Source: an uncultured archaeon
GTDB lineage: Archaea; Thermoproteota; Nitrososphaeria_A; Caldarchaeales; Wolframiiraptoraceae
Direction of reading: 5' to 3'
Assembly (NCBI GenBank): GCA_938083505.1
Contig: CALKCF010000002.1
Coordinates: forward strand, 128,001-192,000
DNA length: 64,000 nucleotides
Position numbers and translations under genes: made by a program. A model generated the notes under the pieces. The model made no database searches and was not told the DNA's origin. It worked only from the letters and a program-made list of their open reading frames with translations. Below are positions 5,481 through 35,523 of the stretch, in pieces; position 1 is the stretch's first letter; each line of letters starts with the position of its first letter.

Positions 5481-6425
5481 TTATTGGACAGGGATTTCTT
5501 CTACACCAAGATGTTTGAGTATCTCGCATGTCCTACAAATCTTTCTACTTGTAGGAACGCCACATACTTTACATTTTTGGATCAATATATTAGAAGGTTT
5601 TATCAACCTTTCAAACGATGTTAAAGCTGTGTAAAGTGTTCCAGGATGGTTCTCTTCATATTCAGTTAAAAAGTTTCTAATTATATTACGCATTGATGTC
5701 CTCGCATATGGGCAAACGTGAGATTGAAACGGTATGCCGTGGAGATATGCGTACATCACAACCTCATCCTCCGGTGTGAGCTTGAAGGGAGCGACCCTCG
5801 GAACAAGCCCCTCGATTTCTGTTCTTATACCGAATGGTTGCTTGTCTACATCACCCCTAAATACGTTCATGAGATACGTCTGGACAACATCGTCCAAGGT
5901 GTGGGCCGTCGTTATCACAGTTGCACCAACACGTCTGGCCATGATATCTAGAGCTCTTCTTCTGAGTATGCCACAAACCGTGCAGGGCTTAATGCCTGCC
6001 CTATCTACGATACCATCTTTCACTACATCGTCTAAGGTGAAACCAAAAAGCTCTTTAAAGCTTATCTTTATGTGCTCAATACCGTTCATTCTTGAAATGA
6101 AGTCTTCTGCGTTTTTTATTGCTTCATCCCTGTAAATGCTTATGCCCTCATCAACTGTTATTGCAACCATGCTTGACTTTGGAAATTTGGCCTCAATTTT
6201 TGTCAGAACTCTCAGTAATGTCAGGCTGTCCTTTCCTCCTGAGACTGCTACCGCTATTCTATCGTCGTATTTTAGCATATTATGCTTGGCTATGGTCTTT
6301 GCGACCCTTTTTTCGAAAGTCTTCGTAAAGCATCTTGAACACAACCTCTCGCCAGAATACGCCCTAAAATATACGACTTTGCCTTTATTGCATATATTGC
6401 ATAAGCCTTCTCGTAACTCGTTCAG
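5481..6425 (-). CDS. TtuA/Ncs6-family tRNA 2-thiolation protein; N-terminal zinc finger extends upstream of called ORF to a probable CTG start
   Basis: SGGKDS PP-loop, CTVC, CPY, C-terminal CxxC..CxxC; upstream in-frame LCNICNKGKVVYFRAYSGERLCSRC. Confidence 0.85.
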   Translation of the reverse strand: MNELREGLCNICNKGKVVYFRAYSGERLCSRCFTKTFEKRVAKTIAKHNMLKYDDRIAVAVSGGKDSLTLLRVLTKIEAKFPKSSMVAITVDEGISIYRDEAIKNAEDFISRMNGIEHIKISFKELFGFTLDDVVKDGIVDRAGIKPCTVCGILRRRALDIMARRVGATVITTAHTLDDVVQTYLMNVFRGDVDKQPFGIRTEIEGLVPRVAPFKLTPEDEVVMYAYLHGIPFQSHVCPYARTSMRNIIRNFLTEYEENHPGTLYTALTSFERLIKPSNILIQKCKVCGVPTSRKICRTCEILKHLGVEEIPVQ

Positions 6426-17684: not shown

Positions 17685-17791
17685 TGGCGCCCTTCGGCGG
17701 GTGGGGTTTTCAACCCTCCCATGGCCGGGATTTGAACCCGGGTCCGGCGGGCGACAGCCGCCGATACTAGACCGGACTATACTACCAGGGC
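17685..17791 (-). tRNA. tRNA-Asp(GTC) with 29-nt BHB intron (17693-17721) at 68/69 in the 3' acceptor strand; CCA encoded
   Basis: GCCCTGG...CT GTC GC...CCGGG TTCAAAT CCCGG CCA|intron|GGGCG CCA; removal restores 7-bp acceptor stem. Confidence 0.9.
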
Positions 17792-34613: not shown

Positions 34614-34708
34614 GGCCGCGGCTGGGATTCGAACCCAGGCAGCCGGCTCCACAGGCCGGAAGGCTAAACCGCTACCTCTGCGTCCACATTATAGTGGCCA
34701 CCGCGGCC
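34614..34708 (-). tRNA. tRNA-His(GTG) with encoded G-1 and 21-nt intron (34678-34698) at 9/10
   Basis: G-GCCGCGG TG|intron|AGGT AGCGGTTTA GCCT T CCGGC CT GTG GA GCCGG ... TTCGAAT CCCAG CCGCGGC C. Confidence 0.85.
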
Positions 34709-34786
34709 AACCGCGGCCGCTTATTCATTAGAACGAGCTTATCCTTAAGTGTTTCAGTCAGACTTAAAAAATTAAAGCATTGTAAT

Positions 34787-35086
34787 TTATTTCCCCTCTT
34801 TGCCTCTGTGCAGCGCGCCCTTAGGGTCTTTAATGAATAATATTATTTCCCAGACCGTTAACGCAGATAGTAGGAGGATGAAGCCGAGGACTGTAGCTTC
34901 AACAGACATCTCTATGAACTCACTACCTTCCATGAGGTAACCCATGAGTCGGTCGATGAAGGCCATTATGGTCGCGCCCCAAAATATCAGGCTCAGCAGC
35001 TTAAACATGTAGACGTCGTTTTCAGCTTTGGAGTACCATATCGCGCTCGATAGTACCGCGGCCATCGCTAATATTATGAGCCACAC
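34787..35086 (-). CDS. Small 3-TM membrane protein
   Basis: GTG start (MWLII...), LIFWGATIMAFID. Confidence 0.7.
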   Translation of the reverse strand: MWLIILAMAAVLSSAIWYSKAENDVYMFKLLSLIFWGATIMAFIDRLMGYLMEGSEFIEMSVEATVLGFILLLSALTVWEIILFIKDPKGALHRGKEGK

Positions 35087-35157
35087 GGTTCTTAATGAAA
35101 ATGTTACCTTTATATAGGTGTTACTCTTCTTAAAATTAGTATTACGGAGGGTATAAA

Positions 35158-35523
35158 ATGGCGTGCTTCTTAGTTCCAATGGTGCTGGCGATTATAATAT
35201 CGCTCGTCCAAAAGATTGTGCGAAATCTTGCTGAAAAAATTAAACTCTGGATTCTCAACGCACTGCTTTGGGGTGGAGTAATACTGCTAGCGATTGAACA
35301 CGTCTGGCATGGTGAAGTCGTTCCTTGGCCACCGTTCTTGACAGCCATGACAAACCCACTTAACATATCGACAATGTTACATGAAATGCTCACAGTAGGC
35401 ATAATGATGTCCGTCGTAACGTTAGCGACATGGGGAGTGATGCTCGTGGTGTCTGATTATATGCAGAAGATAGCAGTGCTGAGGGGTTTTGCGCATGCAA
35501 AAAAACCAACTACCACACGTTAA
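35158..35523 (+). CDS. Small membrane protein
   Basis: MACFLVP, LWGGVILLAIEHVWHGEVVPWPPFLTAM. Confidence 0.75.
   Translation: MACFLVPMVLAIIISLVQKIVRNLAEKIKLWILNALLWGGVILLAIEHVWHGEVVPWPPFLTAMTNPLNISTMLHEMLTVGIMMSVVTLATWGVMLVVSDYMQKIAVLRGFAHAKKPTTTR

Follow-up and report, generated by a model that had tools for sequence, protein, structure and literature searches.

The reviews on archaeal tRNA introns (PMC4090602, PMC4033280) cover non-canonical introns, split and permuted tRNAs and the various types of splicing endonuclease. Introns that lie beside the acceptor stem pose a folding problem, because the bases needed for the splice signal are also those of the tRNA's most stable helix. We have analysed such a case, a tRNA-His gene in which a leader element directly repeats the 5' strand of the acceptor stem. 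The gene resembles those with non-canonical introns in the Thermoproteales and other intron-rich archaea in that its intron is short, lies outside the anticodon loop, has a relaxed splice motif and is presumably removed by proteins. In contrast, the two reviews contain no leader element that substitutes for an acceptor strand engaged in the motif, and a full-text literature search, together with these reviews, yielded no published account of a leader that replaces an acceptor strand, although an earlier description may exist.

In the split and permuted tRNAs of Nanoarchaeum equitans, Caldivirga and Cyanidioschyzon, as in the arrangement proposed here, a fold that can be spliced depends on a sequence that is absent from the mature tRNA and can pair with another part of the precursor. 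There the flanks pair with one another, form the motif and are removed by EndA, whereas here the leader would pair with a strand of the mature tRNA, outside the motif and in cis within one gene, and its removal is expected from RNase P. The present gene is single and colinear, and no bulge-helix-bulge was found at the junction between the copy and G-1. In Caldiarchaeum subterraneum, which belongs to a related Aigarchaeota-type lineage, the integration of mobile elements has been linked to displaced 5' fragments of tRNA genes (PMC3293823). Also there an extra tRNA 5' part lies upstream of an intron-bearing gene, but at a distance of at least 1.8 kb and with a recombinase gene in between (PMC3293823), whereas here the copy is directly adjacent, 10 nt long and conserved across species, and no element was seen.

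Anatomy of the tRNA-His locus

The genome studied (G000; 1.15 Mb, 10 contigs) is that of a Candidatus Terraquivivens, an Aigarchaeota-type archaeon of hot springs; NCBI places Terraquivivens in the Wolframiiraptoraceae, Nitrososphaerota. The window (the whole stretch of 64,000 nucleotides that was analysed) contains the following features of the locus, listed in the direction of transcription:

34763-34780, minus strand: alternative AT-rich box ATGCTTTAATTTTTTAAG, a second candidate promoter or else the terminator of the upstream ORF
34741-34755, minus strand: candidate BRE/TATA-like box GAAACACTTAAGGAT, in which CTTAAGGA starts 31 nt upstream of the leader copy
34709-34718, minus strand: leader copy GGCCGCGGTT (a spare G-1 to U8), the proposed stand-in acceptor strand
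34699-34708, minus strand: tRNA-His 5' exon, G-1 to G9 (GGCCGCGGTG), placed by alignment with intronless orthologues and by a bulge-helix-bulge scan
34678-34698, minus strand: 21-nt intron at position 9/10, excision of which reproduces the intronless orthologue sequence exactly
34614-34677, minus strand: 3' exon, A10 to C73, with the D arm, anticodon arm (GUG), T arm and 3' acceptor strand (Rfam, ARAGORN)
34614-34625, minus strand: 3' strand CCAGCCGCGGCC, which pairs with the true 5' strand (8 bp) or with the leader copy (8 to 12 bp)

The copy thus abuts the true 5' end of the tRNA, and the minus strand reads ...AAGC GGCCGCGGTT GGCCGCGGTG GCCAC..., with a 20-nt AT-rich spacer and GC between the candidate box (34755-34741) and the copy. 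The original prediction, that the leader duplicates the 5' strand of the tRNA-His acceptor stem, describes a real feature: the 9-mer GGCCGCGGT occurs at 34710-34718 and at 34700-34708, with an expectation for a single 9-mer of 0.13 per shuffled window, and Tandem Repeats Finder reports a period-10 array (34696-34718) in which the repeats are directly adjacent. Six independent assemblies from the genus all contain the tandem copy, which rules out an assembly artefact. Among the 42 tRNA genes of the genome, tRNA-His alone has two perfect copies of its own 5' acceptor strand.

The boundaries of the gene were obtained by comparison with other genera. Among the matches listed, 14 tRNA-His genes from four genera of the family read GGCCGCGGTGAGGTAGCGG after unrelated leaders; these orthologues lack the intron at 9/10, and some of them have a canonical 37/38 intron. 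The comparison with intronless orthologues therefore fixes G-1 at 34708, the intron at 9/10 and the mature sequence. The insert GCCACTATAATGTGGACGCAG (34698-34678) is followed by AGGTAGCGG..., which continues via the GUG anticodon and the T arm to CCAGCCGCGGCC, ending at 34614. G-1 is encoded in the genome (G at 34708 opposite C73 at 34614, with anticodon GUG) and the CCA is not. A scan for tRNA-His genes with these exons and a 9/10 intron returned about 100 chance matches in GC-rich bacteria, and real genes from Terraquivivens only.

Gene finders mis-model this gene and would stand to gain if spare leader strands were taken into account. The Rfam tRNA match (34622-34678) covers only model positions 9-63, the default ARAGORN model, which starts at 34685 with a poor acceptor stem, is wrong, and so is the intron-mode model, which starts at 34718, at the leader copy.

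The splice motif consumes the 5' acceptor strand

We searched for the motif under the rule of a 4-bp helix and 3-nt bulges with a cut after the second bulge base, which was checked by eye on a canonical tRNA-Ala intron of the same genome. Such a generic scan returns many chance motifs in a GC-rich stretch, and comparison with the orthologues alone singles out the right one. A single bulge-helix-bulge fold restores the orthologue junction, and it is composed as follows (in the bulges, a slash marks the cut):

helix h: G1C2C3 (GCC) with G11G12U13 (GGU)
bulge 1: U8 G9 / G
central helix H: G4C5G6G7 (GCGG) with intron ACGC (34683-34680), 3 of the 4 pairs formed and one G.A mismatch
bulge 2: A G / A10
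helix h': intron hairpin CCAC/GUGG (34697-34694 / 34687-34684)

This is a bulge-helix-bulge with two 3-nt bulges, a 4-bp helix and flanks of at least 2 bp, in a relaxed form. Excision of 34698-34678 gives GGCCGCGGUG/AGGUAGCGG, a canonical mature tRNA identical to the intronless orthologues. It had been supposed that the true 5' strand is needed for the motif, and this is borne out: the fold that yields the correct junction takes bases 1-7 of the 5' acceptor strand. Because the motif requires bases 1-7 as well as 11-13, it is incompatible with the acceptor stem or the D stem.

The machinery expected for a non-canonical intron is present at the gene level. The genome encodes two EndA paralogues (tRNA_int_endo, PF01974; ~190 aa each), an RtcB ligase and a type-A RNase P RNA; two EndA paralogues also occur in the broad-specificity heterotetrameric type of endonuclease, to which the enzyme of this genome may belong.

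Energetics of the two folds

The leader had also been predicted to pair with the 3' end of the tRNA, and in the minimum-energy fold the copy indeed forms 12 bp with CCAGCCGCGGCC, comprising 8 bp with bases 66-73 and 4 bp that reach the T stem. The complementarity to the 3' acceptor strand thus exceeds 7 bp, and the duplex (-19.4 kcal/mol) is far stronger than those of the 39 other tRNA leaders of the genome (mean -3.3, sd 2.7, strongest -9.0).

Comparing the folds with and without the leader, as the original prediction had suggested, gave a clear difference. When explicit structures were evaluated at 37 C, the splice fold of the leaderless precursor had -24.5 kcal/mol against -41.8 for the cloverleaf with the intron hairpin, a penalty of ~17 kcal/mol; with the leader, the splice fold plus the leader:3' helix has -42.8 against -41.8 kcal/mol, so that the two are level. 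The same relation holds at 60-85 C. In partition-function calculations for the five intron-bearing species (see below), the 3' strand pairs with the copy when the leader is present (P 0.65-1.0, with the true acceptor stem near 0), whereas in its absence P is 0.95-0.99 for the true acceptor stem and 0.000 for the splice helices; leaders with a shuffled sequence behaved in an intermediate manner. The copy thus removes the penalty of ~17 kcal/mol, and in each of the five species the predicted ensemble has it paired with the 3' strand. The central helix H nevertheless reaches a probability of just 0.00-0.09 in the presence of the leader, and the model puts the freed strand elsewhere; the calculations therefore speak for a release of the true strand and not for a predominance of the motif. 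Because the acceptor sequence is palindromic, a hairpin between the copy and the true 5' strand is possible as well.

For the spliced precursor the two 8-bp alternatives are isoenergetic, and the nearest-neighbour model still favours the leader-paired state. An exchange of strands after splicing would therefore require a push that is not modelled, such as tertiary folding or the irreversible cleavage by RNase P.

Candidate promoter and probable transcription of the copy

The earlier proposal of a TTAA-type box that would include the copy in the transcript agrees with the spacing found here: CTTAAGGA starts 31 nt upstream of the copy, the normal distance for a tRNA gene, with the qualification that the box scores weakly on the promoter matrix (2.5). 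It is kept in 5 of the 6 species. The other tRNA genes of the genome have an AAAnTTTAAA-type box whose start is most often found at -33 to -37 relative to +1, the mature 5' end, and the tRNA-His box AAACACTTAAGG has this usual spacing when counted from the copy, not from G-1; no TATA-like sequence with a spacing suited to a start at G-1 was found in the upstream region of tRNA-His. In five analogous genes of other families (see below) a TATA-like box starts 28-30 nt before the leader element (hand count). The best matrix score upstream of tRNA-His (4.1, at -63) belongs to the alternative box, 56-63 nt upstream of the copy, and its use would make the leader ~40 nt long, with the copy still within. 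Both candidate boxes would place the copy inside the transcript. The copy should thus be transcribed, because the spacing of the box matches that of other tRNA genes and of the analogous leader copies.

Upstream of the leader copy, at a distance of 69 nt, is the end of a 130-aa ORF without Pfam match (34787-35179, minus strand), and the T-rich run at 34776-34765 may serve as terminator of this ORF instead of as a tRNA promoter. In T. tikiterensis (L005 / L083) the sequence upstream of the copy is GC-rich and rearranged, and CTTAAGG lies ~15-17 nt further upstream than in the other species.

Conservation within the genus

The locus was found in five further species genomes of the genus; it occurs in Candidatus Terraquivivens tikiterensis (G006) and in T. 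ruidianensis. Copy and intron are both present in G001, G003, G005 and G006, which together with the genome studied makes five intron-bearing species, and the duplication is thus kept in all the relatives that share the intron, as had been asked of it. The 11 nt CGGCCGCGGTT, which comprise the copy and the preceding C, are invariant in these five species (11/11 columns). The stems of the intron are likewise conserved, and the intron loop, the trailer and the sequence farther upstream are variable. The Asp, Met and Ser leaders of these species served as controls, and in their last 10 nt between 5 and 10 of the 10 columns are variable. The acceptor stem does not vary inside the genus, so that covariation is uninformative there.

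The sixth species (G004) lacks the intron and has a copy that reads GACCGCGGTT. At least one real gene of this type was also recovered in a metagenome scan for the tandem copy. The copy of G004 has a G-to-A change opposite C72, which weakens its pairing with the 3' end (-12.4 instead of -19.4 kcal/mol) and makes the cloverleaf the more stable fold by 3.7 kcal/mol. Loss of the intron in this species appears likelier than its primary absence, because G004 clusters with the genome studied (support 82/90 in a weakly resolved three-protein tree), an AU test against a basal position gives p = 0.041, and a neighbouring tRNA-Arg(CCU) is common to G004, G000 and G003 only; a single-protein tree did not resolve the genus. 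G004 may accordingly be viewed as a natural experiment, a sister species that probably lost the intron and in which the spare strand is weakened. The weakened copy fits a helper that has become useless or harmful, as a single case, and the persistence of a copy without an intron counts against a role in splicing.

These observations bear on two other readings of the locus. The copy could be a neutral scar of the origin of the locus, left by a tandem duplication of the first exon or by a 31-nt insertion (copy plus intron) after U8, and removed by RNase P without any role in splicing. The repeat unit is nearly exactly the first exon, the locus equals an intronless gene with one 31-nt insertion after position 8, the first copy has the usual distance of a tRNA 5' end from the box and so looks like the original 5' end, the copy survives in G004, and for a related archaeon a published model ties the integration of mobile elements to both tRNA 5' fragments and the gain of introns (PMC3293823). 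Against this, the copy has zero changes across five species while flanking leaders, intron loop and trailer diverge, and G006 retains the 13 nt before G-1 despite a rearranged upstream region. The adjacency of the repeats does not fit the duplication of an attachment site either, and no integrase or recombinase domain was found in the five neighbouring ORFs that were scanned (a phosphoglycerate mutase, an RFC subunit, a radical SAM protein, a TatD protein and the 130-aa protein without Pfam family). We consider a functionless scar rather unlikely, and note that a duplication origin and a present function are compatible with each other. The invariance of the copy might instead reflect homogenisation by the adjacent true copy; that divergence is possible is seen in G004.

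The second reading takes the first copy as the real first exon, with the second copy inside a 31-nt intron, as suggested by the start of the ARAGORN intron-mode model at 34718 and by the promoter spacing, which fits the first copy. Hand analysis and the scan, however, gave no bulge-helix-bulge with 3-nt bulges around such an intron, the first copy of G004, GACCGCGG, would place A1 opposite C72 as a mismatch, and the 10 extra bases of that species could not be excised by any splice motif. This makes the reading very improbable indeed.

Recurrence in other tRNA genes of the phylum

We carried out two pattern searches on 401 genomes of the phylum. The first was directed at tandem acceptor strands (GGGCCSG, 1-6 nt, GGGCCSGT) and was blind to introns. 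It gave 43 matches, and a reversed control pattern gave a similar number, which implies that most of these are due to chance. Eight matches lie at tRNA 5' ends, and in 7 of the 8 an intron follows right behind the acceptor strand; these seven genes are tRNA-Lys(CUU) genes of families f26 and f30 and tRNA-Arg genes of family f28. The eighth is an intronless tRNA-Ala, about the number expected by chance. This tRNA-Ala(UGC) gene (L338; G285:C58, ~5985-6075) is from another family and has GGGCCGG C directly before its own 5' end GGGCCGGT; its leader is either a chance match (about two were expected) or a leftover helper like that of G004.

The second search (GGGCCCGT, 13-43 nt, GCTCAGC) was directed at the intron and disregarded the leader. 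It recovered nine such intron genes in families f26, f30 and f54: four tRNA-Lys(CUU), four tRNA-Lys(UUU) and one with anticodon CAU. The tRNA-Lys(CUU) gene of G118 was left unscored, as its 3' acceptor strand is interrupted, and the other eight leaders have duplexes of -14.7 to -21.0 kcal/mol with the 3' end. The four Lys-CUU leaders are exact or near-exact copies of the acceptor strand. Three of the Lys-UUU leaders (f26, f30) read GGCGGGCC, which is not a copy and pairs in a shifted register with bases 68-75, and the two leaders of f54 (CAU and Lys-UUU) are copies with a C-to-U change that preserves a G.U pair. A Lys-UUU gene of f30 was found by hand analysis to have the same build as tRNA-His, with a motif that consumes the 5' acceptor strand. 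In the unscored gene of G118 (L348; G118:C78), the copy in the leader and the 9/10 intron are accompanied by further introns, and the apparent interruption of the 3' acceptor strand (CGGGC/ATCCAG...) is near a contig end.

Taken over both searches, 9/10-type introns occur in 12 other Lys, CAU and Arg genes, and all of the scorable leaders (11/11) pair strongly with the 3' end. Including tRNA-His, 16 intron-bearing genes were scored (five His, three Lys-CUU, four Lys-UUU, one CAU and three Arg) with -14.7 to -21.0 kcal/mol; the genes of the first search were selected for having a copy and the eight scored genes of the second were not, and they represent few lineages that are not phylogenetically independent. 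The leaders with a shifted register or a wobble-preserving transition can pair with the 3' strand although they are not exact copies, and this speaks against a simple remnant of a duplication.

They also bear on a reading in which the copy serves the maturation of the 5' end or regulation, where a hairpin with the true 5' strand (CCGCGG-UUGG-CCGCGG) or the leader:3' helix would guide RNase P to -2/-1 or control the output of tRNA-His. To keep G-1, tRNA-His does depend on an unusual cut by RNase P, the palindromic acceptor strand permits the hairpin, and the copy is retained in the intronless G004. The 14 listed tRNA-His genes of four other genera, intronless or with a canonical intron, nevertheless share the stem and G-1 and have no copy, and analogous leaders occur on Lys, CAU and Arg tRNAs that lack G-1 and have the same kind of intron. 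We therefore regard such a role as improbable.

A proposed maturation pathway

The sequence anatomy of the locus, its conservation, the energetics and the recurrence in other lineages are established by the present analysis. From these we judge it probable, with moderate confidence, that the leader copy acts as a stand-in acceptor strand that aids the removal of the 9/10 intron. The interpretation offered with the original prediction is thus supported in every part that is open to computation. The primary transcript would probably start at or just before GGCCGCGGUU, and the copy would pair with bases 66-73 of the 3' acceptor strand. The true 5' strand would thereby be free to build the bulge-helix-bulge, bases 1-3 with 11-13 and bases 4-7 with ACGC, completed by CCAC/GUGG. 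The splicing endonuclease would then cleave after G9 and before A10, and RtcB would ligate the exons. The true strand, now continuous with the D arm, could oust the copy, and RNase P would trim the 10-nt leader and leave G-1, the order of the cleavages being the one we presume. Archaeal tRNA maturation would in that case gain a step, an exchange of strands before the action of RNase P.

The proposal can be extended to a general class of cis-acting folding helpers, in which introns at ~8/9 to 10/11 come with a leader strand that engages the 3' acceptor strand, without which they could not be spliced and thanks to which introns can settle at these positions; whether this generalisation is correct we regard as evenly balanced. 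If true, a spare leader strand would explain how such introns are tolerated, and the helper would be expected to decay once the intron is lost, as in G004.

Further tRNA genes of the genome

Many tRNA genes of the genome studied (on contigs C1-C8) have non-canonical or multiple introns. In tRNA-Asp(GUC) (17685-17791, minus strand) the 3' acceptor strand is interrupted (...CCCGG CCA, then 29 nt at 17721-17693, then GGGC G CCA), and its GC-rich trailer aaCCCGGGGCCGGG resembles T-arm sequence; this gene may be a mirror-image case of a helper flank. ARAGORN mislabels several genes as 'Stop(tta)' (C3:103135-103245), 'Asp(atc)' and 'Pro(agg)'. Finally, identical tRNA-Lys(UUU) genes with identical flanks are located at C1:10-107 and C3:221443-221540, and for this reason the start of C1 and the end of C3 probably overlap.
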